DNA of 63,459 nt, counting the filler, from Asterionella formosa (taxonomy: Eukaryota): assembly GCA_002256025.1 (NCBI GenBank). It is 6 parts of 6 records of this genome, joined end to end, with 100 filler letters (N's around TTAATTAATTAA, not from the genome) between each part and the next. Parts side by side here need not be neighbours in the genome. Positions count along the whole stretch, not along the records: positions 31,795 to 42,284 come from NKIB01009456.1; 5 more parts are not named here. One strand, given 5' to 3'. The position numbers and the translations under genes were made by a program. Every line of letters starts with the position of its first letter. The first letter of the stretch is position 1. The notes beneath the pieces are model-generated. The model was not told the origin of the DNA. It was given only the letters and a program-made list of their open reading frames with translations, and did no database searches. Shown here one piece after another: positions 1-53,902 of this stretch.

Positions 1-652
1 AACCATTGTACATCAAGTAGACATATACTATAATATTAGTAGCTGAAAACAACAATTGGTTTATAATTCGTGATTGATCTGTTTACAATAGGCGTATCAT
101 CATTGTCATGATGTTGCCACTACTACCGGTACCAAACCGGCAAACATCATGTTCCAAGAACATACCGGCACATGCTTGTAGAATGTAGAGCTACAAAAAA
201 CCATATTGTATACTGACATAAATTGAATTGTACCAGGGTGTGGTATTCCAGTACCAGTATGAATCGGTAGTTGATACCGGTATGTTACAGGGATGCATGA
301 TGTATGTACTACGTCGTACTCATATGTATAATGCATACCGATATTTACCACAGCTGTTTGCACTTCTGTACATTCATACTGGGAGATAAATGCATATAAA
401 ATAGGAGATTTCTGGAACAAGGAATCTTGAAACTCAAAATTGTGATTTGGGGGAAAAACCCCAATCGAAAACCCCCCAATCGTCAAAGTTTGGAAACTGG
501 TTTTTTCAGAAAAATTTTCTTCAAAATTAGATTCTGATAATAATGAAATTGATTGGCCAGCGCGAAACCGTTAGAAATTTCTAAATTTCTAAGTAATATT
601 ACCGGGGAGTCGAATATGCATGAGTGCTTGATGGCGCCGCATTCCATTTTTG

Positions 653-675
653 GCAAAATGACCACAACTTGCAGG
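653..675. mobile_element. Single terminal inverted repeat of the CCTGCAAG-ended MITE/DNA transposon family
   Basis: gcaaaatgaccacaacttgcagg followed by TA matches the right ends of the MITEs at 33724-33821 and 33921-34022. The internal flank differs and no partner end was found. Confidence 0.6.
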
Positions 676-18560: not shown

Positions 18561-19479
18561 TTTGATTGAAAAACCAAAAGCTACAGTGTTGAAATGCGTG
18601 CGAAAGGATTCTCTCATTCTCAGTGCACCACCAATACTGACAGTGGCATTGCCATGATCATTGGATGAAGATGTAGAAACATATGAGAATTCACTCCTCA
18701 CCACATACTCTTCATCACTACTGTCTTCATTGCGATTCTTCTTCATCGAAGAATTCATCTCAAATCAGAGGAGCTTTTCTGGTATACAAGTACAAGATGA
18801 AGGGCTGTGAGCACTAAATAGATTTAGTTGTGCATTGACTTCTATTGAAGATTCACTGCAAGTAGGTAGGTACACATGGCTACAGGTAAGCATTTGACAG
18901 GAGAGATTGCTATCACTTGCTCGTCCTGCTGCTATCTAAATAAATCTAAGTTTTGATAGAGAAAAGAGGTTTTGGGTGATTACCCAAAAATTAGATACAA
19001 GGAATCATGAGGGCTGCATCAGAAATATATTTACTTACAGCTTATTTATTTTAAAGAACAAAATTATTCACCAGATCTTGCGTGCTCCTATAATTTCAGC
19101 TGAAATGACGAATTTCACAACTCATGTACCTGTATGTGCTTATCACCGACACCAGGTACTCCCTCCCGGGAGTAATTAATACCGGGAAATACCGGTACTC
19201 TTTGGAAGGAAAACAGCGAGAGGCTGTGCACGACATACATCCGGCAGAAAAATTTATTTACTTTTCCGTCGAAACAACCAAATCAACTAAGTCAAGAAGT
19301 CGCTCAAATAAACAATAAACAACTTCAATTAAATTCAAGAGGAAATTGCCAATGCTTCACTGAAATTGGAAAGGATGTCGAACGATTGAATGAAAATGAT
19401 TCAAGTTTGACTTCATTTTATCTCTGGGGTAAATCAATAGATTACCATCCCAATGCACCACACAGATTCAAGCCAATTA

Positions 19480-19840
19480 TCGACCGGAGCTGGACACAAC
19501 GGCGGAGCTAAAATAGAAGGCATCCGCTATTATCAAGAGATGATTGGAGTCTTGCGGTGGGCGATAGAACTCGGTACTAGGATTGATATTGGCTGCAATG
19601 GAAGTGGCAATGCTGTCTTCTCACCTTGCGTTACCTAGAGAAGGACATCTTCAACAGGTTTATCATATCTTCGGATTCTTGAAAGCAAGACCTAAGCGAA
19701 CGTTGGCATTTGATCCCCAGCACCCTGATATTGATGAATCGAGATTTGTGAAATGTGATTGGCATGATTTTTATCGAGGGGCAAAAGAGCCAATTCCAGG
19801 GGATATGCCAGAAGCCCGTGGAAATGTGGTGTCAACACCG
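19480..19840 (+). mobile_element. Ty1/Copia (CoDi-type) reverse transcriptase C-terminal fragment
   Basis: GIRYYQEMIGVLRWAIELG.RIDI / MEVAMLSSHLALPREGHLQQVYHIFGFLK..FDP..DWHDFYRGAKEPIPGDMPEARG. It is cut at 19840 by a dispersed repeat. Confidence 0.9.
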
Positions 19841-20471
19841 TCTGCAAATAAAAACTATCATATTTCCATGATGCATCATAGGATTGTGATCATCTGATCA
19901 TAAATTTTCATTATATCATCTAATAATTTTGATAAATGCCTTTGTAATTTAAATAGTAACCCTTTTGACTACATAGCATATATTTAATTATTATATCTAT
20001 TGTTTCTATTTGATTCCTGTATTCGAATTTCTTGGTAGGATAATGTACCAGTTCAAGTAATGTAATTTGGCTCGTCATTTCCATCCGCCCCTCATCACTC
20101 CGATTTTTGCAACAACAACGAAATACTAGCGATGACAAGCGGAATGAAAGTTTGCGATAACGTGCGTCTTCAATTTGTTGGTCAAGTGATCTTTATATCT
20201 TCGAGTAATCGTCATGTGCAATGAACCTTTGTTCATAATCATTCAATTAAGAGTTTACAGGAGAGAAGAAACCATTCGAACTCGTAATGTTTCCGCACAC
20301 AGCGCACAAAGTATATCCGTTTCGTCCACTTCAGCATGACAATCTCGCCAATCAACCCGTAAACAAACACATTCTACTTGTTCTCGTTGACATTTTCAAA
20401 TCTCACATGATACTAAATCTACTATTGAGATTCAGCATAGAAGGAGATACGAAAATGTGCGTAACAGACTG
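19840..20471 (+). repeat. Dispersed ~630-bp non-coding repeat, copy 1
   Basis: Reverse-complement match along its whole length to 24821-25441 (e.g. aatcattcaattaagagtttacaggagagaagaaa), with scattered substitutions. Confidence 0.9.
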
Positions 20472-20820
20472 TTGGAAAAATGCGAGCTGACTGCCACAGA
20501 ACAGGAGTGAAGGGTATAGTAGACACGAGCGAGAACAGTACTACAGTTAAAACCGTACAGCCGCTACCAAGATTTACCTGGGCTGACGTGGTAAAAGGCA
20601 CAATGCAAGGAAAAGCAATCAGAGGTCAGGAAAAAATGTTAAAATGTAATGTGAGTAATAAGAGTGTTCGAGACCATTATCTCGAAACAATCCAGTTAGT
20701 AAAGTGAAAGTTTAAGTTTGACAACTTCCTCGTTGCTATCAATTTCATCAACTGTATTCGATTAACACAGTACTAGGTTCAAGGCCTACGATACAGTCGA
20801 ATACGGTAGTTGTTACAACA
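20470..20820 (+). mobile_element. Probable Copia-type LTR (351 bp)
   Basis: Begins TGTTG and ends CAACA. It cuts off the 630-bp repeat on the left and the PGRL1 frame on the right. No matching target-site duplication (cagac vs catat). Confidence 0.6.
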
Positions 20821-20822
20821 CA

Positions 20823-21102
20823 TATCTCGCCGCCATGCAGGCATACTTGAAAGGTGAACCGATGATGCCAGATGCTGAGTTTGACGCATTGAAGACGGAG
20901 CTCAAGGAAACTGGATCGAAGTTTGCAGTCTCAACATCTCCAAAATGCTAGATCGACACTGGAATTTGCACTGTCACATTGAAAGAAGACCAATTCAGAT
21001 CAAATCTTCTCTACCTTCCCGCCAATATTGTTCTCACAAGTGTTTGGCTTGGTATTGGTTTCGAACTCTTGTCGACTGTGTTGAGAATCAACCCGTTGTT
21101 CT
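20823..21102 (+). pseudogene. PGRL1: PGR5-like 1 (PGRL1) fragment with an in-frame stop
   Basis: YLAAMQAYLKGEPMMPDAEFDALKTELKETGSKFAVSTSPKC*IDTGICTVTLKEDQFRSNLLYLPANIVLTSVWLGIGFELL, with TAG at 20949-20951. The 5' part is replaced by the LTR and the 3' part runs off the contig. Confidence 0.75.
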
Positions 21103-21202
21103 NNNNNNNNNNNNNNNNNNNNNNNNNNNNNNNNNNNNNNNNNNNNTTAATTAATTAANNNNNNNNNNNNNNNNNNNNNNNNNNNNNNNNNNNNNNNNNN
21201 NN
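21103..21202. other. Artificial contig linker
   Basis: N44-TTAATTAATTAA-N44. Confidence 0.99.
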
Positions 21203-22459
21203 ATAGCACTGTTGGTCTTATGGTATCATATCTAGACAGCGTAAAATATTATATGTAGTGGCTGATGATTCATTTCATTGTAGCTAGCAACACCTGATTT
21301 TAAGATCATTGAACTTTAAGGAAGAGAACGACAACAGTTATCTAGTAGTACAATTTCTTAAAAAAACCATAAAGAGGTACATGGAACAAGCGACCTGTGG
21401 CAAATACTGCCGGTATGGAACAAAGAAGCAAGTACCAAAATGAGTTCACAAAAAAAAACGAATAGGCGATTATCCAAAGGAACCCAATCGGCGACAGGGA
21501 GTTAGTGGGGATACTACCCCATTGTCGATGGGGACACCATCACCTACTAGTACACAGGATCCCCTAATTAATACTGAAACCCACAATGACGTTTCTTTTT
21601 CAGTTGTTGATATAAGAAAAATGGCTCCTGTTGATGATACAATTAATAACTCCTGGATGCAGATGGACAACATGGTACTACCATATCATAAATTTTCTAA
21701 TCGCACAGACCAACAAGTACATGACAAACTGAGGGAAAAACACATTGCACTTGCCAAATGATATTATCAATTGGTCGATTAACTCAATCACTGCAAAGGT
21801 CGTAATTCGGTTTAAAACTCGTCCATACGAGGTTATCAAGAATCTTCTATTTCAGCAGCCTTATCAGAACATGGTCCTTCCCGCTCAGCTAAAATTGAAC
21901 CATCAATTGTCACAAACAAGGTTGTGAGTTATATTTTCAAGACCAAGAAGTTTTGCTTTGAACATGTAAGTTTGAGGTTATAGCTCGCGAATTGCAGGTA
22001 CTGTAAAACAGAATATCAATCTAATGTGCTTTTTTCTGGTCCCAAAAGAGAATCAAACATCCCGCCCTGCCTATCTGGTCCAAGTAGTTTGAAAGGCATT
22101 TCCAATCACAAACAGGATTGGTTTGCCCAATTTTGCCTAACTCAGCTATACACAATGAAACCGGAGTTACGCAAAGAAGTGGAGAGTGACCCAGAGCTTG
22201 CCGATTTCATATGGAATGGTTCTGATGCACTACTTCCGATGAATCAGACCATTGAACGTATCAACAAGGCATGTTTAGATTACATCAAATCAACATATGG
22301 TGGCATGTGCATTAAAAGGTTGAGAGAATGTCAGAATGTATTGAATAATCAATGTAAAGGGATCTTAGGTAAGTTCTTGCAGGGAGATGCTCTGAAAGCA
22401 TGATGCTTTGAGTAGATGATCAAATTCTTATCAAATATGTTTCAATTTAAAAATGCTAC

Positions 22460-23800
22460 TCTAAGGATAATGCACAAAATGGTTGTTTTCCTCCTCATCT
22501 GATCTTTTGCAATAAACAATTAGCACATAGTTACTGTCATGACAAAGTGGATAACAATCACCTTGGTATAAATACGGTTTGTTCTTACCTTTTTCTAGGT
22601 TCTCATCCAGATCAAATATAACCTTCCTTTACCTCAGTTGGATGAAGTTCATGAATTATATAATGGATCATAGAGGTAATTGTTTCAAGGTCCCAATATG
22701 CAATATCATTAAAATCTGAAGATGACTTTTTGATACCTTTGACTCCTCCATAAAATACAGAGGCATAATTGCATATTTCTTGTGGGGTATGTGTATGTGT
22801 GTACAAATCTTTCCATAATTTTAGTTGTCCATGCGTTTTCGGTAAACTCAAGGAAAATGCAGTTTGCTTTGGCATAATAACTCTACACATTTCACATGCT
22901 GACTCTTCACAAAAGTAAGCTAGCTGCCTTAAGGATTGTTCTCAATGATTTTACAAAGAAATTCTTTTTCTTCCACATTTCACATGCCGACTCTTCACAA
23001 AAGTAGCTGCCTTCGGGATTTTTCTTGATGATTTTACAAAGAAACAATCCTAATCGTTTTCTTCCATGTATGATTTGGAAAAAGATTCAATTTCCTGCTT
23101 CAAACTTTGTTCCCGACTCAGTGCATCAACTGTCTTAGCCAGCATCACATCTCTGTCTGCATTGATATTCTTGAATTCGTGGTCTTGATCTAGCTCGGAC
23201 TTTTTCTTGAATATCTTTTCTTTTAGAAATGCAGTAGGTTCTCTGCTTTCATGATGTTCATCTTGATGTTCTGGACGAATAATGAGACATTTCTTGGTTT
23301 TGAAACTTTTCAACCATTTCTTCTTCAGATGTGATGTCTCCTACATTTCCGCCGGTATTTTCATTCATCGAATGAAATTGATCATCAAATGAATGAGAAT
23401 CACTGAGTTCTTCTTCATTATCAGCGATGTCAGGAGAATGAGGAGCGAAATACAACACTGGAAGGAACTGTGACTCTGTAGGAATAGAGTCTTCATCCAC
23501 AAAGAACAACTGTTTGGGTTTCCTCTTCGAAAGCAATCTTTCCTTCTTTTCAATCTCTGCCACTATTGTATCAGCATCCTTCATTATTTTTTCTGGAGTA
23601 TTATGAATCTGATCAAATTCATCTGATCCCTCTTTGAGTGTATTCAAAGGAATCTTCGATTGATTTCATAAGTTTCTTCATCTTCTTTTCCGAAAACATA
23701 TTTTTAAGTCGGGTAGTGTAAACAACAGACGGATGTAAGTCATGTTTCTTGTTTGACTGATCCTTTCCATGAAATCCATGAAATGCCATTTGGAAAGCTG
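22460..23800 (-). pseudogene. Fragment of an unknown repeated protein family (copy B)
   Basis: VVYTTRLK..KKMKKLMKS..SDEFDQIHNTPEK ... WKDLYTHTHTPQEICNYA..YWDLETITSMIHYIIHELHPT..YVLIVYCKRS..NNHFVHY. Broken by stops, frameshifts and an ~85-bp duplication at 22886-23044. Confidence 0.55.
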
Positions 23801-23970
23801 TCAAAGGGCCAAAAGACTATGATGTAAAACAGTGGGTTGGAAATGCGGAGCTTTTCGCGGCGCTTGTGGTGGTACAACAGGTGTGATGTTGCTTGTTGTA
23901 ATTGTTGAACAGAAAACACAGTGTAATATGTATGTTGCGCCAGCGGTTATATATGTAGAGAGTGTTTACA

Positions 23971-24090
23971 CAATACAATACAATACAATACAATACAATA
24001 CAATACAATACAATACAATACAATACAATACAATACAATACAATACAATACAATACAATACAATACAATACAATACAATACAATACAATA
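23971..24090. repeat. (CAATA)24 microsatellite
   Basis: Perfect pentanucleotide array. Confidence 0.99.
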
Positions 24091-24820
24091 CAAATAACAA
24101 GGAAAAACGACACAACAATGAACATGATGGCTGGTTGTGGAGGATACCGGTATGTGATATGCATGCATCCAAATCACAAATGATATTACTATGGTGATGT
24201 ATATATCAATGCATCTGTTTACTACTTATATTCTATTCACAATATAATACTATCATATCAACTATATTCTTTTACTGTATACATTAAAGGTTGAATATAT
24301 ATATTAACTAGTATAACATCATTCAATGCTATGTATCATATGTTGGTGATGCATGTATCGAAGTAGCCCTATCATAATATCGCATTATCATCTTGTCAAT
24401 CATTCCTGGAACTGTATTCTGCATTGTACTACGCAGTATGATACTATAACACGCACTTTAGAAGCTAAGTCACTGCTATAGCTAATGTTTACAAGTCGAC
24501 AGTGTATGTTCACACACGCTAAGAAGGTTCGAGGGAACAAAGAGTTCCAACGAGCAAATGATGATACAGGTACCAATTTTTCCAGTGGCAAACCACAACG
24601 ATGAAGGACACTTGTCCCTCTATTGATGATGACACGGACACCGGCTTTTTCATGAGCAAACAACAATGACGAGGGCCACTTTCTGTCGCTCTCTTGATGG
24701 TATCAAAGATGCAGACAAGTTCAATAGTAAATACAAGTACAGCATGCCAAATGCAGAAACGAGCAATATGAAAAAGAAATTGTAATCAGAATCATTCTAC
24801 AACTTTAGCTATGTGGACTT

Positions 24821-25441
24821 CAGTCTGTTACATTTTCCTATCTCCTTCTATGCTGAATCTCAATAGTAGACGTAGTATCATGTGAGCATTGAAAATGTGG
24901 ACGAGAGCAAGTAGAATGTGTTTGTTTACGAGTTGATTGGCGAGATTGTAATGCTGGTGCTTGACGAAATGGATTTGCTATGTGCGCTGTGTGCGGAACC
25001 ATTACGAGTTTGAATGATTTCTTCTCTCCTGTAAACTCTTAATTGAATGATTATGAACAACGTTTCACTGCACATGACAATTACTCAAAGATATAGTAAT
25101 GATCACTGGACCAACAATCGAAGAAGTTATCGCAAACAATCATTCCGCTTGTCATCGCTAGTATTTCGTTGTTGTTGTTGCAAAAATCGGAGTGATGACG
25201 GATGGAAATGACGAGCCAAATTACGTTACTTTAGCTGGTACATTATCCTACCAAGAAATTCAAATACAGGAATCTAATAGAAACAATACATATAATAATT
25301 AAATATACATAGTCAAAAGGGTTACTATTTCAATTACGAGGGCATTTATTAAAATTATTAGATAATGTAACAAAAAATTATGATCAGATGATCACAATCC
25401 TATGATTCATCATAAGAATTTGATGGTTTTTATATGCAGAC
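24821..25441 (-). repeat. Dispersed ~630-bp non-coding repeat, copy 2
   Basis: Reverse complement of 19840-20471. Confidence 0.9.
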
Positions 25442-28095
25442 ATAGTTTATATTGATACATTCTGTAGAACACGATTCTCAAACCAATAAGACAAGCAATG
25501 CATGTTCATTCTTGCAGCTAGATGCTGTAACTAATCGCAAGATTGCTTGGCTACTCATACTTCCAGGAGTCCCTATTACTATGAGTAACAGGAGTTTACT
25601 TCATAGCAACTGAGCCGGCTGATCCTTCTCATTGTTCAGATTGATTGTTCGTTGTTGAAATAGGGAAACATTTGCAGAGTGAGTTGATGAGAAAACAAAA
25701 GTTGTGAAGCCATGATTTCGGTTTTGTTGTGCTCCTTACCATGTTGCCCATTGACCAACCCAGCCCTCATCAAATTGATTGTCTGCAATCAATGAACAAC
25801 AGTCGCAGAGTGAGTTCATGAACAAAAGATTGTTAGTACAAAGGAATCCAATTAAAAATGCGAAAGACAAATGATTGATGAACCTGCCTTACACAGAGCA
25901 CAACACATTTCATTCTTCCCAAGGTTAACCCTGCCCTGCCAAAAACAGTTTGATTGTTGTAGGAAAAGAACAAGGTTCGCAGAGTATGTTCATGACTGAC
26001 CACTGCTCCAATTCCAAACAGGAAAAAGAAGAGGAAAAACGAAATGGCGGTAGAGGAACTACAACCACAATAAAACATAGTTCCGAACACAAGTCAAAAA
26101 AAACACAATAAAACGTAGTTCCGAACACAAGTCGAAGAACACAATGGTGCAGAGCAACAAGAGGAAGAACGACAACAATGTAACACACAACCTATCTCCA
26201 TTTTCCAAAATATTAACTGCTTACCATATATTTCTCGAACTTTCAGATGCATCCTTTCTGCACTACTGACAAGGAATAGCAAAAAATTGCCTGTCTGTCT
26301 CTTCCAGAACTGGCCCACAACAGAGTCCTCGTTGCTTTTCTGGAAGCAAAGAACACGATTCACAGAGTAAGATCAGCCAGGATGGCTGCTTAAGCTCACA
26401 CAAGAAATTTTTCCATTTATTAACAAACAATGAATATTCAGTTCAAACGGAGGGCAAAGAACAAGTAAGAAAAGGGTATACAGCCACCACAGTAGCCACA
26501 ATGCACCACCAGCCAGCTCCTTGTTTCCAACAATAAGATCAAAAGGGATAACATTAGAAACAACAGTGATAGCGACAATGTCAAGAACAACAACGACAAC
26601 AACCACAATGCAAAATGCATTTTACCACGAAAGTGATATTTTGTTCCTTTACCATGTTCTAGTCAGCAGCTGTTTTCCATTAAAAGAAACCTGGCGCAGA
26701 CGGTCCTCCTCATATACCTTCGCTTTGTACTAGCCATGTGTACATTTTACATAACAAAAAGATGGCGCGCAGTCTATGCTTTGTCAGTATACTTTTTGGC
26801 AAGCAATTCAGAACTCACGAAAATCTGACTTACATGGTCAATCGTCAGGATTTTTAACGTTGTGATTTGCAATCGATTAGTAATGGTAATGCTATATGGC
26901 CCTAAATAGGATGTCTGAATTAATTCAACTTTTTTCCCACCTTTTCGGAGCGTCTACAAGCAAAACTACCGCTACAACAATGACTCTAACAAGGAAAGTT
27001 TCTAGGTTTGGGAAATCTATAGAATATGCGAATTTTGTTACACAGAAATAGCCGTTGCGTGTATTCGCGTCCATCTGATGATCATGTCATTGTCGTCAGT
27101 AGAAAATAGGAGCTGCAACCAAAGTTACTTTCTTTTCGGAAAGGCTATAATTTGTCTACAATGATTCATTTATCAAATAAAATTGGGTTAACAAAGCAAA
27201 GGATCAGAAACATTGGTAGATATGTTTTATATACTGGTACTACCCGGAGTTCTATAGAAAAAAGAGGCGCATACCGGTACTATATTAGTGTTCATCGAAT
27301 ATCGTTGTAGTCACTCGAAAATGAGAGGTATTTCCGAGATACTTCAAATAGTCAACAGTGATATCTCTAGCAAGTGGCTAGCATTAGGGAAAGTAGCAAT
27401 GGATGGCTGTGTAGCTGTGTTAAATCGAATTGAATGAGATAATTTATTTTGTGGTTTTACAAATGATGGGTCGAATATCTATATCGTTGTCTCTTGCTAT
27501 AAAACAAATACCAGTACATAATCGCTATTTAATCGATGCATAGCTACTGTAAGAAACATTCATGGTTTCGGGAGTCCACAGATTTTTAATGGAGGCCCAA
27601 TAGAAAAGAATCTTAAATTCTTGTGTAAATTACCAGCCAGGACCTCCCAGAAACGCAAAAGTGTGATGGATATTCAAAGTGGGGCGAGAATGGTGGAGAA
27701 CATGGTGATCGGAACCGCTTGTAGTCAGTTTCTTGGCGAAGATATTGAAGAATTACAGGACAAGTTGGAAGCTGTCCCAGTTGACATTGGAATTGTGAAA
27801 TCCAAAACAGGAGGTTCTCGATATTCTCTTTTGATCAAGTAGCATTTGCAAAACCAGTCGCAGCCGCTCTGCCTGAGCAATCCTGTTTCATTCTTGATTT
27901 GCTTGATGATATGATAGCATAAAGCAACTGATAAAAGAAATGTTTAAAAAAACTGGTAGATGAAGATGTGGAAATGATTCATATTACTACAAAAGAAACA
28001 AACAAGGGAAGTAACATGATATAATTATTAATTTTGATAGAACTCATTAATCTCCTCGATTTACTAGTAAGGTAGTAGGAGATGCTAAGCATGAT

Positions 28096-31694: not shown

Positions 31695-31794
31695 NNNNNN
31701 NNNNNNNNNNNNNNNNNNNNNNNNNNNNNNNNNNNNNNTTAATTAATTAANNNNNNNNNNNNNNNNNNNNNNNNNNNNNNNNNNNNNNNNNNNN
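31695..31794. other. Artificial contig linker
   Basis: N44-TTAATTAATTAA-N44. Confidence 0.99.
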
Positions 31795-32878
31795 TAATAC
31801 TTGCATGCATTAGTCGACCTCTATTCAAAGGGTTTTAATTGGGGTCTGCTTAACATTTTTCTAATTTTAGTCCAAAAACGGGGTAATATAGTGGTCTTAA
31901 GCAGTTTTTGACTGGTACCAGGTACCTTTCATTTACCTAGCTGATACTACGGTGGTTATATACTGTGTAGTGTGTTTGTTAGTCTGCAGTGGTTTATTTT
32001 TGCCATGAAAATTTTCCCTTGCTTCCTCATGTTAATTAATTCTTAGTTCTCTTCTGCCCCCATCGCATGCCTACTGATGCGTGAATTTTGGTTTGCAATA
32101 AGCCGAGATGCCGGGATTCCTTGACTTGAAGTGAAGCGGTGCAGATCAGGACAATAACTCCCAGAATACTTGAACGAACAGCAATAGTATCTCCAAGTGC
32201 CAGCCAGATTCTAAAGCGTTGCAATTTATAATATGATCGCCGTTGATTCATCGTCCGATTGATGAAAGTTTGTTGAAAATAAAATGATAAAGTGAGAGGC
32301 GAGGTAGCTGGTGCCAGTGAGAGACACTAGAAGTACAAAGTAGTGCTTCAAAATTACAGAACTATTCCCTGAATTTTAGATATTATTGCATCTAGCCGTT
32401 CGCTCCTGTCCTGGATCTTGAACGGTGGCGGCGGCAAGTGTTCGCTTGTGCTTCCAAGTCGAACAAGCGTTTCAGCAGTGTTTCCCTCGGTTTCTTATGT
32501 TTCTTCTCCTTCATGTATTGTTAAATCCATCATTCTACTTGACTGGTGTTTTCGTAATATGACTCCTTCTTTCAGGCACATGTGCATTTCTATTTCGAGT
32601 TGTTTCGCCGGGAAAGAAGCCAACGAAAAGATTGCTTGGTGTAAGCAATCTAGAGTCACCTTGTTTCCACTTTGTAAGTATAGACAAGAAGGAAGTAACC
32701 ACAGCTATCCTATTATTGTATAACCATATCGAATTCTGCAATGACGAGATGGAGATTATGTCTGGAAACGTGCGCGACGCCCATTTATAACATTCATGTT
32801 CATCCAGGCAGACATGCGCTAAGCTCACATTATGTTCCTTGGAAACTGCCCTACCCAAACTTTGCTCATGAAAATTCA

Positions 32879-33478
32879 TTAAAGTTCCTCATTTCCCTTC
32901 TCCAACGCCTTCAAGATGTTGAGACGTTGGTGCAACCACTGCTTGAGCTCTGCTTTCATCGAGTCGCCCTTCATCTTATCGAGTCGTTCGATTTGCTTGG
33001 CACGAGCCTCCGACGTCGCGGCCTTCATCTTCTCGATAAATCCAATCTCCTTTTCGGTGCACTCTGTTGGGTTGTTCACATCACACTTGACCTCAAGCTT
33101 GTCCACCACATGCTTCTTGAGAGAGTCCAAGTCCCTAGGTCCCTGGAAATCCTCACCACTCATGTTCCCATCTACAAAGTACTTGAGGGTTGGATAGCCC
33201 TGAACTCCAAACTTCTCGCACAAAGATTTAGCCCCTTCTGTGCAATCGGCGTCCCCGATCAGCACGGACGATGAAGCTGCATACTCCTCGGCTAGCTTGT
33301 CCCAATCTGGCTTGATCGCCTTGCAATGACCACACCAAGGCGCAAAAAACTTGACAAAGCCGTTCTTTCCAGCCATTTTTTGCTCAAAGTTCTCAAGGGT
33401 CAGTTCTACTGCACCAGCGTTCGCCATGGAGGCAACAAAGGCGATCGTGGTGACAACGTAAAGTAGCTTGTTCATCAT
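32879..33478 (-). CDS. Single-thioredoxin-domain protein disulfide isomerase, ER resident
   Basis: Signal peptide, VKFFAPWCGHCK active site, GVQGYPTLKYF and a C-terminal NEEL retention-like signal. Intact and intronless. Confidence 0.92.
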   Translation of the reverse strand: MMNKLLYVVTTIAFVASMANAGAVELTLENFEQKMAGKNGFVKFFAPWCGHCKAIKPDWDKLAEEYAASSSVLIGDADCTEGAKSLCEKFGVQGYPTLKYFVDGNMSGEDFQGPRDLDSLKKHVVDKLEVKCDVNNPTECTEKEIGFIEKMKAATSEARAKQIERLDKMKGDSMKAELKQWLHQRLNILKALEKGNEEL

Positions 33479-33723
33479 GATTGGAATTGAATAACAAGAG
33501 TATTGTGTTTGTGGATTTCCTCGTTTCTATGCTGCAACCATATCTATCGGGTAGTATTATTTACCTGTATGTAATATAGGTACCGCTACCGGTATTTATA
33601 CTGGAGTAATAGTGCTTGTATGATTCAATAGCACACCGTCAGTTTCGTTGTGGGCCTTTTTTTTTAAAGGTTTCCATTATCACACCTGGGGGTCGTTCTG
33701 TCTCAGGTACCTGGTACCAGGTA

Positions 33724-33821
33724 GAAGCAAGTTGCGGTGATTTTGCTGAAACTAAAGGTTTAGCTATCTTTATCCCAGATTAAAATGTGTTAAGTTAAGC
33801 AAAATGACCGCAACTTGCAGG
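33724..33821 (+). mobile_element. MITE copy 1 (98 bp, ~24-bp TIRs, TA flanks)
   Basis: TA|gaagcaagttgcggtgattttgct ... agcaaaatgaccgcaacttgcagg|TA. The three outermost left bases are degenerate. Confidence 0.8.
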
Positions 33822-33920
33822 TACCGGTAGATATATGGATTGCCACCACAGCACATAACAGATACTCTATCAGTACCACTCCCCTGCTTTACAGTACTAC
33901 ATTTTACGGAGTACCAGGTA

Positions 33921-34022
33921 CCAGCAAGTTACGGTCATTTGGCTTAAATAAACAATTGAATTCAGGATAAAGATACCGGTAGCTAAACTTTTGGTTTCAG
34001 CACAATTACCGCAACTTGCAGG
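33921..34022 (-). mobile_element. MITE copy 2 (102 bp, inverted relative to copy 1, TA flanks)
   Basis: TA|ccagcaagttacggtcatttggct ... agcacaattaccgcaacttgcagg|TA. The interior is the reverse complement of copy 1 with an extra CCGGTA. Confidence 0.8.
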
Positions 34023-37000
34023 TACCGGTACCAGGTATGCGAAGTAACTTCGACACAATTACCGTCTCGTCCGTTTCGTCTTTCTCCATATGTAGTCTGT
34101 GTAGAAGCTTCGTAGGTACTTTGCTGGAATATTTTAAATCGGTCCATAGAATACTAAAGTAGCGAGCCAGGGATAGAGAGTTACTAAGTAGGAATAGCGT
34201 AATGGTTTTTTGGGTTCGGTGCTAAGTAAGAAACATGTCACGTTCCCAAATCCGTGTTCAAAAATCCGGATCCACTCTCCGGCTTCTGCGGCAGTTGAGT
34301 TGCGCTTTGCCATGGGAGGGACTTAGGGTGGGTGATTTAGACTATAAATTGCAAAAGGCTTGGCGATGCTTTAGACTGCTTCTCTGAATCGTTATTCAAA
34401 GAATTGTGTGCTCCCCCTGCACTAATTCACTGATGTTTACCTCGCGTGGTTGCTGTATTCTCCATTGCCTTAGCAGCCGACTCTTTAGTTGTTCGATTTA
34501 ACTCTAAAGCTAGAGCTTAATAGTCGCGTTGTTGCTACTATATTAATCTCTCAGCTTTGACTCCTTCGATTCATGTCACGTCGTTTATTCAGTCCGGTGC
34601 TCGCCTGGTATAACTCCATCGCGTCTGTCCTTGTCCGTAATATCAAGTAAACAGACTGGTGCCAGTACCACCTAAAATCTGAGAGCCAATGTTCACACTA
34701 CCTTACGTCTAAAATTATCGAAGTTTCTTAAATGAAAAATTTTGGACCAAGGACAAACGTTATTGTAGCTTAAGGTTGCGGCCCCAGCTTAACCCTAGTT
34801 TGGAGAAAAAATCGCTAGGGTTATTGCTATTGCAATTGTTTTCTTCACCAGTTCAATAAATTTCCCCGGTTACTCCAAACATTTTGGGAATCTTTGGTAA
34901 GTAGTCATGAACTACTTCCAGACTGGCAACCATGTCAGGAGTTTCCTTACATCTAGCCTTTGCTCTTGCTTTGGAAAGGGGAAAATTCGTGTCAAGCAAA
35001 TCCGATTCGAAGGACTCAGTGGACATAGAAACAAGATCATCCACACAAACCTGATGATCATTACTTGGAATAAAAATGGAAAAGAAGAACTTCGATGTAG
35101 AAATGGAGACCACATGACGCCGATGATCTTCAATTGGAATGACAGGAATGACTAGCTAATTCCATCGGCTTGTCAGGAAGGAATGCTTCCCAATTTTGAT
35201 ATTTACTCTCAAATGTATCCGAAATGGTGCTAAGAAGTTTATTTCTCTTTTCATCTGTATCAAGACCAGTACTAACAATTTTGTTAAAAATACATGGATA
35301 ATTAGAAACTCCCAAATAACAGAGAAGTTCATTAACATCATTGGACTCATTTTCACTTCAATTGTTGCTGTACTATGCATATTATCGCTGAATGAAAAAA
35401 ATACATTTATGTATTATGTATACTTACCTGTACCAATTTGTAAGGCATAAAACATATTATAATATAAATATCTTGCATGGCAATGAAGTTGCGACATAGC
35501 TAATGTAGTATACCGGTAATGCCTCTGACATTGTTGTTCATCAATTGTGAACATCCGCAGTACCAGGGTATCTGGTAGTAGTCTATTTCACATGCATGTA
35601 GAGATACATCATATGACCAATATATGAATATTTATTGTGCCGGAACTAGAATACTGGTATACCAGTATGTGGATTTATGGCACGTATGTACGTCCATGTC
35701 CTACTGGGTATATGTAGTAAAACACATTTGAAGTAGTTTACAATTGGCTGGTAGCTTTATTTCTCTGAGTCAGGCGGCATATTGTGTGATTCGCCATTTG
35801 TTAGCCTGTAAGGCGATTTCTCAAAGCAAATAAAATTATGATTGTCATTTGAAACTCGCTGTTAATTCATGATTATGAAAAGTTCAAATTCTATACTTTG
35901 CCCATGATCATACAGTTAAAGAATATAGTAAGAATCAAAGTTCATACTACGAATAAGCACTAAGTGGTTTGTGGTATCAACTTATTGTCTTGTACATCAA
36001 CTTCTAAATAGTGCCTCTAATATTGCCCGAAGGAATTATATTGCTTAAAACAATGGGATAATAAAAAACCTAATAAAAGGTATGATTGTCATTTCAAACC
36101 CACTTCTATTCATGATTCACGTGGGGATGCTAATTACTGATTTATTCTGCTGACCTGACACTGCTACTTCCTGATTCATGATGTCTGTGCGCTCAAGTCA
36201 GCAGCATATAAACAATCTCTCCAATCATCAATGAGAATGGAAGTCTCATGATTAAGGCCACAAGCAAAATACTGTGCCGCCATCTGGTTCATCTTCACTC
36301 TGATCCACAGCTCATCCTGACGAACAGATTCTAAATATGAATCAATGTCGGCCGCGTTAGGCAAATCATGATCAATAAATCATCTTCTGGATTTCATATG
36401 GTAAACGGGCGTGGCCTTCAATGGATTGTTCTCCCATTGGAGTAACAAAAAAATCTGACCTCGCCGGCGTGATTCCCATTCAAAATCGAAATGAGAAAAC
36501 ATTTGTTACAAGACTAAGATCTTCGTCTTCCCCATGAGAAGTTAACTTGTGAGGGAATTGACTAGCACACATGGCGTAATAGAAGGGAAGAAATACGATT
36601 ATTTGAATGGAGATACATGAAATGCAACAATGCATGTAATTTTCTGGTACATGTTTTTACATATGTGTAATGAAATCAGTGTATAGTCACAACCTGAGAA
36701 AAAATCAATTGATAGAACAGAAAAATTGGTTGACATAGCATAATTTTTCTCAAAAGAATAAAAGTTAAGCTTAATCAAAAACAAATTGGAACATAAACTA
36801 AATTAAATGTTAGATCAAATGGGGTTTTTATTCACAGATGTGGTGGAATAAGAAATTGCCCACAAAGGGACTGTCTCTTTGTCATTTATAAGTCTATATA
36901 TTTAGGAACTCATCTTGAAGACCCAGTAGTAGTAAAAAGTATATGCATCCTTTGCATGCAGTATCATTACATATTGCTACAGACTTAAATTTCTGAAGGA

Positions 37001-37635
37001 GAAAGTTGATGGCACTCTGCCAAGAATAACAATCAACTCTATGCATGATGTTGTCACTTGGTAGGCTAGGTCTCCTTGTAGTACCACATCTAAGCCTCGA
37101 AATACACACTTTTCGAAATTTCATCTGCATAGGAATGTTAATTAGAATGTGGTACTTCACATGAATTAACGCCACTCTTCCCATAGATAAGGTTACTTTT
37201 ACGGTTTCATGTGAAGTTTTCATGATGAACTTTTGACTCGATACTGAATTAGTAGAGGTTCAAATAATTCATTTCAGAGTTCAACTAAGATCCTGCTGTC
37301 GTGTATAATTAATTTAAGACACGCACCTTCATTTAAGAAAATAGTAACGATTTTTTTGGTGTCTAATTTCATGCATGGACAATCAACAATTTACGGTTGA
37401 GCACATCACGTAAATATGAACTCCTCTGGTCAAAAAGAATACTCTTCGTTGTTATGATTAACATTCATACAGTGAGTTCAAGACGAACTATTTAATATTA
37501 AAATTAATTAATTTCAAAGTTCAAGATATTCTCTATTTTACCGGTAGTTGACAAACCTTCAGATAAATGATTGAAGGACCTTCTGATTATAGTTGAATGG
37601 CCCTAAAGATAAATAGTTGAAAGAACTTTGCAAAA

Positions 37636-38008
37636 TAAAGTGAACTAAATTAATGAATTCCGTGAATATAATTAATACAATACGTAAATTATCTTATAGA
37701 ATTACGTGAACAAAATGGACATGTTACGTGAAATACAATACAGAATTATGTGAACAAAATTTGAAGGTTACGTGAACTTAATCACAAAATTACGTGAAGT
37801 ATTTCAAATAATTATGTGAAGATGATCACATAATATAATGATGATCAGGAATGCATGCATGATACTCTGATCAAATAATTAATGTGATATATTCAGATAA
37901 TATAGTTGATACATTCAAGTACGCATTTTGATGTATTCAATTAATTCATGTGATCCATTCAAAATCAACTAGGCACATTTACGTGAAGGTCATTTCACGT
38001 AATATGTG
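37636..38008. repeat. TTACGTGAA motif array with exact 22-bp period plus a terminal inverted pair
   Basis: Cores start at 37636, 37658, 37680, 37702, 37724, 37746, 37768, 37790 and 37812, with dissimilar 13-bp spacers. An inverted pair lies at 37979-37987 and 37994-38002. Confidence 0.85.
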
Positions 38009-38844
38009 GCTTAGATGTAGCCTGGCTGACACAAGGAGCAGGAGTGCTTCCGCCCACAGTTGTTGCTCCCACCAAACAACCCTGATCATTCCATTCCGAG
38101 TGAGCATGATTGCCAGGCTGCTGCCAATTGATTCTTCGAAATGCACTTACTCAAAAGGTCCTTTGGCTGGGTGCAATTTCTGGGGCCACGAGGTAGACCC
38201 TGTAGGCCTGCTAGTATCAGCAAAAACCCTGATCCTAGTATGGTATATAAAAGTTTGCGCCTAAAAATCCTATTAGTTAAAATCACATTGACCATGTTGG
38301 TATTATTCTGGTGGTTTACTCAACAACAGAACAACATCCTGCTCCTCTTGATTTATCAATATCTCCGCCATGAGCAGCGCTATCGGTAAACGGATCAAGC
38401 GGCGCGGGAGCACACAATTTCATTTATCTATGACCTATTTAGTGTTGAGCATGGCAAATCCACGCCTACACGAAAAACGCATTCATATGGAAAAGCTTTT
38501 GAGCTTTATAGTGGGCTATTTGGAGCAGAAACTGTACAGGACTACCTCAAATATGGTCCTATAGCAGTCACAACAAAGCTTCTATAACAATTTCACACCC
38601 ATTGCTGTGCAATGGACTTCGATTGCAAGTTCATCATGAATGAATTCAATCACAACAACAATGAGATCAGATGGTAAAATTATTTAAATGTATGCATAAA
38701 TTTATTAATATGAAAATGTTATTTATGATCAAAATTTTACTCAAGCTAAAATTATATTGTACTGGTAGCTATGGTGGCTACCTAATGTAGTTTCAGGATT
38801 CACCCAGCCATAGCTATGAGGATCTACAGTCATATGCTGACCAC

Positions 38845-38916
38845 GGGGGAATGATATAGTGGCTAAGCACATTGTCTTTGTAAATGAAGTTGTGGGTTTG
38901 ATTCCTGCTTCTTTTT
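38845..38916 (+). pseudogene. Decayed tRNA-like sequence (possibly Thr-TGT derived; tRNA pseudogene or SINE head)
   Basis: 72 nt with GGGGGAA/TTCTTTT acceptor, AGTGGCTAAGCAC D-arm, ATTGT-CTTTGTAA-ATGAA anticodon arm and GTGGG-TTTGATT-CCTGC T-arm. The anticodon and T-arm stems largely pair if TpG is read as CpG. Confidence 0.45.
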
Positions 38917-39424
38917 TGAGAAGCAATTGTTGGGTTCAATTCCCACACTCCTTATCATCCCACATGGTCTTGCACGGTGTGTAAGAAAAAGTGGGTTGCC
39001 CCCCCCCCCTACAAGCAAGGTGTGCTGCCTTCCTTGGAAGTCAGAGTTTCCCCTAACTGTTTCTAAGACTATCATCTTTTCCAGGAGGTGGTAGGGGACT
39101 CACCTACACTAACAAAACTAGGAAAGCACAGGTGTTTTTGGCAGGTTCTCCTATGAAAAGCCACTTGTAACCCAAAGTCTTAGAAAGTGCAACATAGGTG
39201 ATTTAAATTTCAGAACATATCAAGTGAGGCATTTATGTCTCCCATGAACAAACCATAGATTGCATACCCACAATTGCAATATGATGTTTTATGTTCACTA
39301 GTTTACTGGATGGTTGAGGGATGGTGCAATGAAAGTGTTATACAGGAATGCAAAAGAAATAACTTTCTTGAATTCAAAAAGGTAGACCAAGACAAATGAA
39401 TTCCCAATATCAGAAAGCCCCAAA

Positions 39425-40273: not shown

Positions 40274-41968
40274 TGGCGTTGTTTTCGTTTTGATTAACGA
40301 TGAATGATCGTGAAAAACGTTTTCGGCTTGTAAAGGTATACAGGAGATTCGCGTAAACACTTAATCAGAAGCGATGAGTTGAAAAGCCTCAGTTTGCGGT
40401 CAACCGACGAAGCAAAGAATGAAATTGCCTTAGTGTCGATAGGTTTCGGCAACATCGACTGAAATCATCAAGCCACTGTTTGTTCATCTGCTGCCCCGTC
40501 TCTTCACTGTTTCGTTTCACTTATGTTCGGTTAAAACGGAGTTAAATTTCTCTTCATGGTCGTATACAATATTCCATGTATGGCGATCATTTGCAAACAT
40601 GCTGGCGCCCTTCCATACGTCGACCTCGTTTTCTTATGTGTCAACATTTATATATACACCAGTAAACTACCGGGTCAGAGTACCATGTAACGAGCGATAG
40701 CCAACCATAGCTAAATAAAGTCTGGATTAAATAAGTATACCGGTACTGCTACTGGTACTACCGGTAAAAAATATCATTCAGAACAAAACAATACTGTAGC
40801 TATACCGTACAGTATAGCTAGAAATAAGAATACAAGGAGGAGTAGAATGGAAGGACGTGGGACAGAACATGTACCGGTAAGTGGTATGCAACCTTGATGG
40901 CTGGGTCGATGGGTGAAGAGTGGACTACCACTGCCTAGTACGTACATGGTACTCCGTTGCTTGCAAACAGAAAACCTACCTTGTATATATATAGTGTACA
41001 GGTAGGCTAGGATTAATGTGGTAGACTACCTGGTACCGGTACTCCAGGTAGGAGACTACCGGTACTGCTATGTACCGGTATACACGTTTAACAGCGTCAC
41101 ATGCAACCTTCACCGTACATACCAGTAGTCAAACGTTTGTATTTTCCGGGTTGTTTTAGCATTTTCCGTATTGTTTTAGACTGTTGTTCCTGTACATAGG
41201 TAAAACTTCTTTTTTGAGTTTCACCGACATTTTCGTTGAGCCAGTCAACAAACTGCTATAGTACTTCATGTTGTTGCTCCTTGCCTGTTGCGGAAAAAGT
41301 GGTTTTGGCAATATTTTTGTAATACAGAGGCTGAGGATTTCCAATAACAGTAAAACCTGGCTGAGCGAAGCAGATCCCTAAAGGATTCAATACACAGCCA
41401 CTAGACATCAATCCAAAGGTCTTCCCAATTCCTACTAGCATGCCACAGGGCCACATTGGATTGTTTGCCATCATACACTGATGGTGAATTGCAGTCTAGC
41501 AAAATCAATTGCCCTTTGATGCTTCTATATGAGGGCTTTCATTTGTCATTGATCTCGCAGCCAAATATAGCACACACGGATGATGATCACAAGATAAGCA
41601 AACTCAGGTTTCGAAACTTGCTTGTTTCACATTCTCCAGGATCCAGGTAGCTTGCCTGCCAGCCAGCCAGCATTCGTATATTGGGCTTGTGTGACTTGTG
41701 ACTATGGTCATCTTTGCTGGCTCTGATTGCAGCTCTCCAGATGTGCACTCATATTGGCTATTTGAAAACCTCCAGTATCTAAAATCTTTCATCGTCACTT
41801 GTTTGTTATATCAGAAACTTTTTATTTTCATCTGCCCTAAGGAAATGAACCTGAGGACACGAAAAATTTACTACCAGTATACATCAATTGAATAATTTTG
41901 TTTAATTCACTTCCACAACATTGTACTACAATCTCAAAAGGTTCAGTCGACAATCATAATTTAAATTT

Positions 41969-42384: not shown

Positions 42385-44311
42385 AGATAAAATGGGAGCA
42401 AACTAACAGAATTAATGGTAGTCAGAGTGAAGAATATTTGTGAACGGAAATGTTGCGAATTGTCGAGAAAAGTACCGTATTATAGAGATTATTACTGAAC
42501 AAATTTTTCTTCGTGTCGCCAGAAAATATTGTCAGTTGGCCCCAAAAATTATGTGGGTTTCTAAAATAATTATGGAAGTTGTCGAAACTATTTAAGTTCA
42601 CTCCGTCCATATATATTGTATGATGCATCATATTTTTTTGTGATGTCATACCCTTAAATTATGTACGTAGCTAAATTCGTCATATTGGGCCACCCAAATA
42701 ATTAATTTGGGTGATCATATTTGACTAGCGTTTTTTTTGTGGCGGCTGTACCAGTAATCGGCGTTGTAGATGTACCTTGTTGGATTTCCACTGTGGGTAA
42801 TTACATTCCAAGTGAAAAGACAATGTGGCATAAAGTACTACAATGCCTTTTTTGCAGTAATAGTTAATGGAATAATACTGGCCAAGTGTTTGGTTATCAT
42901 CCTTGTTTTCCCCAGGCTCCTCTACACTAAACTCACAACTTGTAGTACTATCATAGGCTATTTGCCATAACCTCTGTACAACATCATGGAAATAAGTACA
43001 TTTTTGTAAGCATGGGAATGTGTCAGTTCATTTACTCTCCTGGTCAACATTGCTTGTTGCCATGCTGATGTTTAATTGTAATGATGTTCAAGTTTATTTT
43101 AATTTATGATGTTTTACCAGTAGTATAATCCCTCAACATAACATAACACAGCCAGTGCACCAGGTACACAGGTACAGGTACGAGTCGTGCCCAAAAGTAC
43201 TCACCAGCTACACATGCCTGGTACCAGGTACCAGTAGCAGCACTGTACCAGGTACCCTGTTACTGGTACCACTAGCGGCACTCCAGTACGAGGTACCAGG
43301 TACCCCTGGTAGAATTTCTTGGACAATACCATGGCATACTGCAGGGTTCCATCGGTCCGTTGGTAGAATATTCTACCAAAATGTGAAAAAAAATTCTACC
43401 CCCGGTACTACTGGGTAGAATTTTTGCCTTCCTCTATACCATATTTTCACCACGGTCAAGCAAGGGAGGGGGAACGGACAGTATTGACCTGTCCAGAGTA
43501 GAACACTACCGGAGCCCTACAGAAAAATACTACTTTGGTAGAATTTCGTCAATAATGTACCGGTATGTGTTTTGTACCTGGTACCCTGTACAATGTAACC
43601 ATCTGCAAAGCATTACTTATAAAGGTGTATGTCGCATAGAAAAATAGGGTTAGGGATTACGACCCATTTCCGGTACCGAAAGGTACCTGGTACCTGTCAT
43701 CCCGAAAGCAGACAGAGCATCAGGCCACCACATGCATCACATCAGCGAGTGAAAATGGAATCAACCTATTGATCGGTAAGTTTGGCGAACTGGGTTGATA
43801 GTCTCAGTTTTTGTAAAAGAACGTTGTAATGGAATGATTGAAGAGTCGCTTGAGGGTGAATTGCCAATGCTTTGCTGAAAGAAAAATTCGGGGACTTTGA
43901 TATGTATCGCCCATTGTCATTCTGCGTCGAACGGCTTCAGAAAATACACAGCGCGAAGCACTTACTAATATTATACTTGGGTTATTCAGTCTTGTATAAA
44001 ACCTGTATACACGTCAGCAATCTCTCCGAACGAACGCCGGTGTCAACCTTTTTCGTCGCTACTGCCTTCTTCATTGACACTCCCACTATCGTAAGATAAA
44101 TCCATACCCAAATTGCTCCCTTTGATCCGGTATCTATTTTACTCCTCCCTCTCACCGCGTTCTCCTTTTACAGACAAGAATTGAATGCAGTTGATCTCAT
44201 CTTGTCTCACCGAACAGGGAACACAACCATTGCGAATCAAGAACGTATCATTGAAAGCGAAGTTTGACTGTCAACCAAACGACCATTCCAAATAAGGCTT
44301 TTCCTATTTTC

Positions 44312-48316: not shown

Positions 48317-48905
48317 CGCAAAGTACTTCTTGAAAAGTTAAGATAAATGAGCAGAAGCAATGAGCGATGATTGTCGTGGGCGCGAAAGGGTGTGCGATGC
48401 AGACTGATAACAAAAGGTGCATGTATGAACGATACGTTTCACGTGGTCCGTACGCACACACAAAAAACCTATGGTTTGCTTGTAGACCATTCATGTCTCC
48501 ATAAATTAGCTAAGAAATAGATAATAGGAGTACCAGTACCAGGTACTACTTATGACACTAATAGACGTACGTACCGGTAGCCTGCTTGCTCGATTTCAGG
48601 TATGGTATTTTCATCCCAGAACCAAATAGAGCTGCTCCTTTTCATGAGCAGCAAGGTCGACAATGACCAGTGAGTAACAGGTACCAGGTACCATTGGATG
48701 ACTCTAGAGTTATAGGTTTCGTCCTGGCTTCCTAGACTTGAGAAACATGTCAACATACATAGAGCCAAATGCACAATAGAATTCATGTAATGCTCTTGAA
48801 TCACATTTATGGTCACATATGTTGACCATTGCAGGGTTCAATGAATATGGAACGGTCTTCTGGGATCACAATGTCATGTTCTGAACCCGAAGTGTACCAG
48901 CAGAG

Positions 48906-48971
48906 TACCGGTACCAGGTACCAGTACTCAGACTACCGGTACCAGGTACCAGTACTCAGACTACCGGTACC
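48906..48971. repeat. 28-bp tandem repeat built of stacked TA-bounded palindromic motifs
   Basis: (taccggtaccaggtaccagtactcagac) x2.4. Confidence 0.9.
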
Positions 48972-52973: not shown

Positions 52974-53902
52974 TTATTTGTTAATCCTTGTGTGTAACTC
53001 GTTCTCCAAGTCGACACCAAAGTATACAATGAGGGTTAGTCGAGTTCTCTCATTATTGAGTTCTGATACATATATGATATAACACTAACCCTATATACAT
53101 CTGTATTGATGCGCAAGATCGCTCACCTGTTACCAGGTACCAGGTACCAGGGTTTACTAGGGGAGTTGGCACTGGCACATTTGTCCATATTAAAAAAAAC
53201 AGGAAACCGGTACTAGTTGATCGAGTCGGGAATTGAAAACGGCCCCAGGCTGGTGTAGAATATCAATAAATTCCTACCTGGTACTGCGCTACTGACACTG
53301 TACGTCCACAAAGCACACCCCGATAGTTGAAGTGGAAAGTATACACTTGAGTGTATACTTTTGTACGGCTACCTTAAGAGAATCGTGGAACCTGGTACGT
53401 GAGAGGAATTGGGTAGAGTCTAAAAGTATCAAAAAGTGTAGACTAACCACCAGATAACTGCCGTTTAGTTTATACTATTTGCGGGTATGTACCGGTAGTT
53501 CAAACACGACCAGGACAAAGAAAAATCATGAGGCAAATAGAAGCATGTAAAATTCGGAGGAGGTCTCCAAGACCAAGTGAAACGGTACCGGTACCTGGTA
53601 CCAGGTATTGGGCAAGACGAAAAAGAATTTCAGCCAATCCCCAGCTGTGCAGCACGGGCACGATCGAAACACAACACGAAAACCACCATGGAACTCTTTG
53701 CAATTGAGAATGTTTTCATCCAGACATTCTTCTTCGCAAAAAGAATCTGTTTGGAGTTTGGACGACTGTGCGAGACAGCTGCCCTTTATGCGATCGTCTG
53801 AATACCAAAGGGCCTACTTCTCCAGTGACTTCTTTGCCAGCAACCCAAATTCAAACCACTTCAAGTTCGTCTCCGATTGTTGCAACTCTTTCAAAGACGC
53901 AA

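Follow-up and report, generated by a model that had tools for sequence, protein, structure and literature searches.

The 63,459-base stretch of DNA analysed here, referred to as the window, contains numerous short palindromic words in which four or five bases are framed by TA dinucleotides, and copies of a MITE (miniature inverted-repeat transposable element) whose terminal bases equal the cores of these words. The words are considered here as candidate excision scars of this element. Two full copies of the MITE are present at one locus. Copy 1 spans 33724..33821 (98 bp), is bordered by TA at 33722-33723 and 33822-33823, and has the left end GAAGCAAG and the right end CTTGCAGG. Copy 2 spans 33921..34022 (102 bp), is inverted relative to copy 1, is bordered by TA at 33919-33920 and 34023-34024, and has the ends CCAGCAAG...CTTGCAGG. 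Adjoining the left end of copy 1 is the stack TA-CCTGG-TA-CCAGG-TA (33708..33723), a 16-nt perfect palindrome, and adjoining its right end is TACCGGTA (33822..33829), the first TA of which is the target duplication of the MITE. Copy 2 is adjoined on the left by TACCAGGTA (33912..33920) and on the right by the stack TA-CCGG-TA-CCAGG-TA (34023..34037). With dots marking the element boundaries, the arrangements read TA-CCTGG-TA-CCAGG-TA·MITE·TA-CCGG-TA for copy 1 and TA-CCAGG-TA·MITE·TA-CCGG-TA-CCAGG-TA for copy 2. A truncated third copy at approximately 645..675 (plus strand) retains the right end only, followed by TA and ordinary flanking sequence with no stack. The flanks of the full copies abut a motif in four of four cases, and the single flank of the truncated copy does not (0/1).

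TA is found at both ends of the two full copies (2/2) and at the sole preserved end of the truncated one, and the right ends of all three copies read CTTGCAGG·TA. Contigs of four public sequencing runs (X1 to X4) were aligned to the window; in run X1, the loose ends of 36 contigs at position 33727 read ...TA-CCT preceding GCAAG. The right ends of the three copies and the consensus of these loose ends give the termini TA·CCTGCAAG...CTTGCAGG·TA, as first stated in an earlier note on this DNA. The inverted repeat arms of copy 1 are 36 nt long and 81% complementary, and copies 1 and 2 pair at 87% over 38 nt. With terminal inverted repeats, lengths of 98 and 102 bp and no open reading frame (ORF), both copies resemble Stowaway-like MITEs. 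The superfamily, judged from the TA duplication, is presumably of Tc1/mariner type.

Several observations bear on the occurrence of these sequences elsewhere. In run X1, the summed contig depth over the MITE reaches 554,130, compared with approximately 1,000 in neighbouring unique bins, a depth that does not equal copy number. Between 36 and 163 contigs of this run terminate inside the MITE or next to it, and on the far side of its left end their sequences are unrelated (agreement 0.4), suggesting that MITE-like sequence is present in many contexts. In run X4, which belongs to another study, the 18-nt stack GGTACCTGGTACCAGGTA is found in 27-30 contigs whose flanks are unrelated, indicating that the motif class is not peculiar to the MITE locus. 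Two of the contig joints listed, 31922-33736 and 31925-41025, derive from contigs of high depth and resemble copies elsewhere in the genome rather than alleles. Stretches lacking contig cover were given no weight. When metagenomes were scanned for a 15-mer from the end of the MITE, a word too short for the purpose, 119 loci were returned, all of them chance matches aligning to the MITE over 29 bp or less; one of the 119 contains a motif. Self-alignment of the window yielded 39 non-trivial pairs, mostly coding tandem repeats, and the MITE pair is the sole informative one.

Motif counts and their match to the MITE ends

TACCGGTA occurs exactly 24 times, at the positions listed in the earlier note, which had counted at least 24. 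In 100 dinucleotide-preserving shuffles of the whole window the mean was 0.24 and the largest count 2; the excess claimed in the note is borne out, and its expectation of about one was too generous. The companion motifs, likewise described there as abundant, are found 20 times for TACCWGGTA (0.30 expected) and 20 times for the TACCAGTA/TACTGGTA form (1.14 expected, with TACCAGTA counted on both strands). When every TA-X-TA word that occurs six times or more was surveyed, with X from 2 to 6 nt, these three classes ranked at the top, apart from one telomere-derived word, with enrichments of about 100-fold, 45- to 100-fold and 13- to 19-fold, respectively. The flanking TAs are an integral part of the motif: TA lies on both sides of 24 of the 109 CCGG and 20 of the 123 CCWGG in the window, and the next flank class reaches at most four. 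Outside the TAs the bases are variable, and the TAs themselves are invariant. We refer to TACCGGTA and TACCWGGTA together as strong motifs (n=44). Overall, the motif density is approximately one per kb of window. The bare word TACCGGTA was found in the literature only in primers and barcodes.

The cores of these words correspond to the termini of the MITE. We joined i bases of its left end to j bases of its right end, framed the product with a TA on either side and tallied the words so formed. The (2,2) remnant is TACCGGTA, with 24 occurrences; the (2,3) and (3,2) remnants are the two forms of TACC(A/T)GGTA, with 14 + 6 = 20; and the (3,1) and (1,3) remnants, TACCTGTA and TACAGGTA, occur 5 + 4 = 9 times. 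The (3,3) remnant and all longer ones are absent from the window. The cores of the strong motifs are therefore 4 or 5 nt long, equal to the terminal bases CC(T)...(A)GG, with a sharp cut-off. The odds that the first three bases of an arbitrary TA-flanked element equal the motif core are about 1 in 64. These counts agree with the proposal in the note that CCT...AGG ends would yield TACC(A/T)GGTA. They make the separate family with CCG...CGG ends, which the note had invoked for TACCGGTA, needless, as TACCGGTA is the plain 2+2 product (CC + GG) of CC...GG ends.

A direct before-and-after comparison is provided by the two MITE copies themselves. Copy 2 contains a TACCGGTA at 33974..33981, where copy 1 has a single TA (33765-33766). 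In the inverted alignment, GCTA·TCTT of copy 1 is matched by GCTA-CCGG-TA·TCTT of copy 2, a four-base insert accompanied by a duplication of TA. The exact 6-bp gain of CCGGTA at a TA, as the note had claimed, is thus confirmed, and there is no local repeat at this site that slippage could use.

The TACCAGTA/TACTGGTA class appears to be secondary. Among the 24 single-base variants of TACCGGTA, TACCAGTA and TACTGGTA rank first and second, with 12 and 8 copies. They are followed by TACCTGTA (5) and TACAGGTA (4), which are the (3,1) and (1,3) products; no variant after the first two exceeds five copies. The observed/expected ratio in the window is 0.63 for CpG and 1.26 for TpG and CpA. Based on their rank and the CpG depletion, we infer that TACCAGTA and TACTGGTA are decayed TACCGGTA, produced by C-to-T transition at the CpG, one on each strand; direct formation is possible. 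If the decay reading is correct, about 44 of the 8-mers were formerly TACCGGTA.

Stacking through shared TAs

Neighbouring motifs frequently share a TA. Among 73 motif hits there are 12 such adjacent pairs. Supported ORFs aside, the window has 3095 TAs, of which approximately 146 belong to motifs, and random re-hitting would be expected to produce only 3-4 shared TAs. Two of the 12 pairs are copies generated by a 28-bp duplication, and the excess of TA-sharing is roughly threefold. This duplication (48906-48969, unit repeated 2.3 times) also holds three of the 24 TACCGGTA, leaving about 22 that are independent. A second tandem array, (TACCAGG)x3, lies at 53131-53152. Stacking is thus partly the result of secondary tandem duplication, at 48906-48969 and 53131-53152. 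Chaining through shared TAs, as put forward in the earlier note, therefore stands in so far as stacks are present and both full MITEs lie inside them, but some of the stacking has this other origin. The further idea that the sequence class extends itself is tentative; it rests on the threefold excess and the motif-abutting flanks of the full MITEs.

Gene surroundings and other repeats

A solitary TACCGGTA at 33587..33594 is situated approximately 110 bp upstream of the start of a thioredoxin-family ORF (33478, minus strand). The cluster at 40738..41127, upstream of ORF 39428-40360 (minus), consists of six TACCGGTA, one TACCTGGTA and two TACCAGTA/TACTGGTA. Upstream of the homeobox ORF (44255-45028, plus), at 43115..43692, there are five TACCWGGTA, one TACCGGTA and three TACCAGTA/TACTGGTA. 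The cluster at 48531..48969, between the hisHF start (48316, minus) and a DUF1801 ORF, includes the stack within the 28-bp tandem duplication. A further cluster (53131..53607), in the divergent intergenic DNA that precedes the LRR/ankyrin/kinase ORF, contains (TACCAGG)x3 and the stack TA-CCGG-TA-CCTGG-TA-CCAGG-TA at 53586-53607. No motif was found in the two convergent 3'-3' spacers (46325-46628 and 51248-51634; 300-390 bp). Elsewhere, two TACCGGTA (124, 275) and one TACCAGTA (252) lie at 124..282, inside a 154-aa ORF without family support. Scattered singles occur in the repeat-rich stretch 19190..27516, where TACCGGTA is found three times (19190, 24145, 27272) and the TACCAGTA/TACTGGTA form twice (27232, 27509). 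A solitary TACCAGGTA (31916..31924) lies where contig depth is very high (bin 31795-32144). The interval 35511..35667 holds TACCGGTA at 35511 and an adjacent TACTGGTA·TACCAGTA at 35652-35667, and another solitary TACCGGTA lies at 37539..37546. The clustering upstream of genes fits insertion into tolerated or open DNA and, equally, a regulatory motif.

The ORFs of the window are long and eukaryotic. Two Pfam scans together covered all 89 stop-to-stop ORFs of at least 100 aa, one of them 77 and the other the remaining 12 as near-identical ORFs, and identified hisHF, DOT1-like, TALE homeobox, RING, thioredoxin-family and LRR-ankyrin-kinase-ARM proteins. A HMMER search with the hisHF protein gave matches of 100% and 91% identity, and the best named relatives are diatoms (Bacillariaceae, Fistulifera and Pseudo-nitzschia, ~78% identity). 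The nearest cluster in a protein atlas, commonest in Mucoromycota, was misleading in this respect and was set aside in favour of the diatom assignment. The words of a 10-kb stretch are present at a fraction of 0.87 in one 'algae metagenome' run and of 0.05-0.20 in freshwater metagenome runs. At the single-copy site 32099, run X1 shows two letters, T and G, each at about half depth (483.7 of 905.6). Together, the half-depth letters and the metagenome and protein matches suggest a freshwater diatom, diploid and heterozygous, as the most likely source. The last bases of the window are (TTAGGG)x10 (63398-63457), indicating a chromosome end. Short interstitial telomere-like dimers are found in the final 4 kb (59709-59720, 60160-60171 and 61421-61432), and TTAGGG hexamer hits number 32 in all, with singles spread across the window. 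Five evenly spaced pairs of 44-N runs (10504-10603, 21103-21202, 31695-31794, 42285-42384 and 52874-52973) look like masks rather than assembly gaps.

Other repeats were also observed. A 5.6-kb unit is bounded by inverted repeats of about 630 bp (19840-20471 and 24821-25441; 87% identical) that begin with GTCTGCAAATA, and a third, diverged copy of its terminus lies at 6856-7139. The ORFs inside this unit gave no Pfam match; either a large DNA transposon or a retroelement that has been rearranged would be a possible origin. GGTAGAAT occurs six times within 240 bp upstream of the homeobox ORF (43308-43544), and also at 49816. Among these copies is the palindrome TTGGTAGAATATTCTACCAA (43360-43379) with a GAAnnTTC core, which we take to resemble a heat-shock element. 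The same region contains a possible 103-bp TA-flanked unit with ends of the CCCC...GGGG type (43301-43407; CCCCTGGTAGAATT.../...AATTCTACCCCCGG). A scan for further TA-flanked elements with terminal inverted repeats yielded 166 candidate pairs, nearly all attributable to chance or to the long inverted repeat. A near-perfect palindrome of 92 nt (4971-5062; 87% self-complementary, arms of ~33 nt) may be another hairpin-type MITE. The ORF fragment 15596-16531 (minus) encodes a reverse-transcriptase RNase H domain (E 1.6e-23) and is a retroelement remnant. The kinase-ARM region (56854-59564) is built of tandem units of ~132 bp (ARM repeats), and its blocks 57378-58225 and 58648-59497 are 96.7% identical, indicating a recent internal duplication. 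In run X1, bins 31795-32144, 34245-34944, 37045-37394, 37745-38094 and 38795-39144 reach summed contig depths of 10^5 to 1.7x10^6, against ~10^3 in unique sequence, pointing to several other high-copy repeats in intergenic DNA.

Proposed excision and its alternatives

Based on the enriched words with their flanking TAs, the agreement of their cores with the MITE termini, the spectrum of core lengths, the one exact TA insertion, the position of the MITEs within stacks and the many contexts in which these sequences occur, we suggest that the motifs are donor-site scars of a Tc1/mariner-type cut-and-paste family, represented here by a non-autonomous MITE of ~100 bp. We give this reading of the sequence a probability of roughly 0.6. 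Excision scars were also the core of the earlier note's interpretation and remain the best-supported reading; its second, CCG-ended family is not retained, and TACCAGTA/TACTGGTA are better read as CpG decay than as a footprint class of their own. The excision origin and the extent of the stagger are inferred from the sequence patterns, as are the decay at CpG, a preference for scar TAs and the assignment to a superfamily.

In the proposed mechanism, the MITE would insert at a TA and duplicate it, with the ends CC(T)GCAAG...CTTGC(A)GG. A Tc1/mariner-type transposase would mobilise the element, cutting the non-transferred strand 2-3 nt inside each end, such that the flanks keep TA+CC(T) and (A)GG+TA. 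End joining would then produce TA-CC-GG-TA (2+2) and TA-CC(T/A)GG-TA (3+2 or 2+3), with TA-CCTG-TA or TA-CAGG-TA as less frequent outcomes. TACCGGTA would become TACTGGTA or TACCAGTA when its CpG undergoes a C-to-T transition. Each scar would carry a second TA in a GG·TA·CC context, and a new round of insertion and excision at this TA would generate TA-sharing stacks, which local hopping and occasional tandem duplication may enlarge further. Scars would build up where insertions are tolerated, in gene-upstream and intergenic DNA.

Several observations weigh against excision. The ends CCT and AGG have no microhomology, and the 2+2 product would require a 2-nt stagger or trimming before joining. 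The tip of MITE copy 1 (33724-33726) reads GAA in place of the consensus CCT, three adjacent differences that might stem from aberrant repair. Pfam scans of the 89 ORFs of the window detected no DD(E/D) transposase, and the only mobile-element match in them is the reverse-transcriptase/RNase H fragment. The window offers a single before-and-after case. The long repeat pair 19840-20471 and 24821-25441 has no CCGGTA-type indel among those shown in its alignment. Finally, the statement in the note that none of the motifs it counted lies in intact coding sequences holds for Pfam-supported ORFs, which occupy 27.6% of the window and contain none of the 44 strong motifs, but 15 of the 44 lie in ORFs of at least 100 aa without family support. 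The 44 motifs represent 12 independent clusters, such that the depletion from coding sequence is modest (P ~0.02), and the clusters upstream of five ORFs or ORF groups, at 100-1100 bp from the start, would look alike if the motif were regulatory.

This last point raises the question whether the palindromes are cis-regulatory sites, formed by TACC/GGTA half-sites for a dimeric factor and kept by promoter selection. The ends of the MITE would then carry or mimic a half-site, and the MITE would have inserted beside existing sites. The palindromic form of the motifs, their avoidance of supported ORFs, the clusters upstream of the thioredoxin, 39428-40360, homeobox, hisHF and LRR-kinase ORFs and the empty convergent spacers are all consistent with this explanation. 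Nevertheless we consider it unlikely. Spacings of 4 and 5 nt are about equally enriched, and overlapping copies with common TAs are awkward for independent binding sites. One copy is an exact, TA-duplicating insertion within the MITE, and others lie in the repeat-rich stretch at 19-28 kb, away from supported genes. For the MITE end to agree with the motif core over three bases by coincidence, the odds are about 1 in 64. The presumably CpG-decayed forms are as common as the intact one, which is a weak argument against purifying selection.

The motifs could also have grown mainly in a microsatellite-like manner, without many excisions, if GGTACC(W) units that started at a few MITE junctions multiplied by replication slippage or tandem duplication. 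The (TACCAGG)x3 array and the 28-bp unit repeated 2.3 times show that such events took place. As a general explanation slippage is improbable, because it cannot make the lone TA-CCGG-TA inside the MITE, where a local repeat is lacking, and because solitary motifs with ordinary flanks are found at 124, 275, 19190, 24145, 27272, 33587, 35511, 37539, 40872, 48572 and 53490. In addition, only two of the 24 TACCGGTA extend to GGTACCGGTACC.

The latter observation also bears on the target site. If the element duplicated a longer palindromic target, GTAC or GGTACC, the motifs would represent two retained targets or the target itself. Both full MITEs can be parsed as GTAC·CTGCAAG...CTTGCAG·GTAC, and GTAC is present at 23 of 48 motif sides. 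Yet two copies of GGTACC would give GGTACCGGTACC, and two copies of GTAC would give GTACGTAC, which is unlike the observed words. Many motifs read aTACCGGTAt, and the truncated MITE is followed by GGTACA. A longer target is therefore very improbable. Least probable of all are P-nucleotide scars from a transposon of hAT or Transib type that forms hairpins on its flanks: the scars and stacks are palindromic, as in TACCTGGTACCAGGTA, but opening of a hairpin on a flank ending in TA would add TA-derived bases and not CC/GG, the inner bases equal the element ends, and no 8-bp or 5-bp target duplications are seen at the MITEs. The models with 4- or 6-bp target duplications and with hairpin P nucleotides were rejected on the observed words and flanks.

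Excision scars of the proposed kind resemble Tc1/mariner footprints, in which TA is kept on both sides and 2-3 terminal bases from each end lie between. In Tc1 and Tc3 the cut falls 2 nt within each end, which gives four-base, 2+2 scars. The motifs of the diatom differ in that the ends CC(T)/(A)GG have no microhomology, that the 2+2 form dominates and that the words occur about once per kb and are stacked. For excision of Osmar5, a mariner-like element of rice with a known transposase, an experimental system reportedly exists in yeast. The canonical footprints of Sleeping Beauty contain 'cag' or 'ctg' between the TAs, which is paralleled by the central A/T ambiguity of TACC(A/T)GGTA (PMC5224488). 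A parallel to a MITE enclosed by footprint-like motifs comes from introns of beta-amylase and DMC1 in Triticeae, where Stowaway MITEs left TIR (terminal inverted repeat) fragments of 1-4 bp beside TA duplications, re-insertion took place at the TA beside an earlier footprint, and footprints surround the elements present today (PMC1925063). The diatom MITE is likewise non-autonomous, targets TA and sits within footprint-like motifs; the Triticeae cases concern one or two loci across species and a different TIR, whereas dozens of putative scars are found here in one 63-kb window. A literature search, outside which most subscription journals lie, returned no description of accumulated excision footprints in diatoms, and the terms MITE, mariner and footprint are absent from a recent preprint on diatom transposable elements. 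The mechanism is already known; new here are the host and the dense, stacked occurrence of the motifs.

Past cut-and-paste activity is usually invisible or leaves few traces. If the motifs are scars, this diatom records excisions directly, and their density would permit estimates of excision versus insertion rates and studies of end joining in stramenopiles. A bias of scars on later insertions, and a role of scars as raw promoter sequence, would become testable. For annotators, the motifs are a warning that transposition can give rise, as a by-product, to a palindromic 'promoter motif' of very strong enrichment. A more far-reaching proposal, which we regard as speculative and rather doubtful, is that re-insertion of the MITE at its own scar TAs wrote self-extending, GGTACC-based palindromes into most gene-upstream regions, at about one per kb, and that the resulting arrays may have joined the promoter architecture as structure-prone palindromes, CpG methylation targets or factor sites. 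If this were true, the genome would be a readable ledger of cut-and-paste turnover far exceeding the elements still present.

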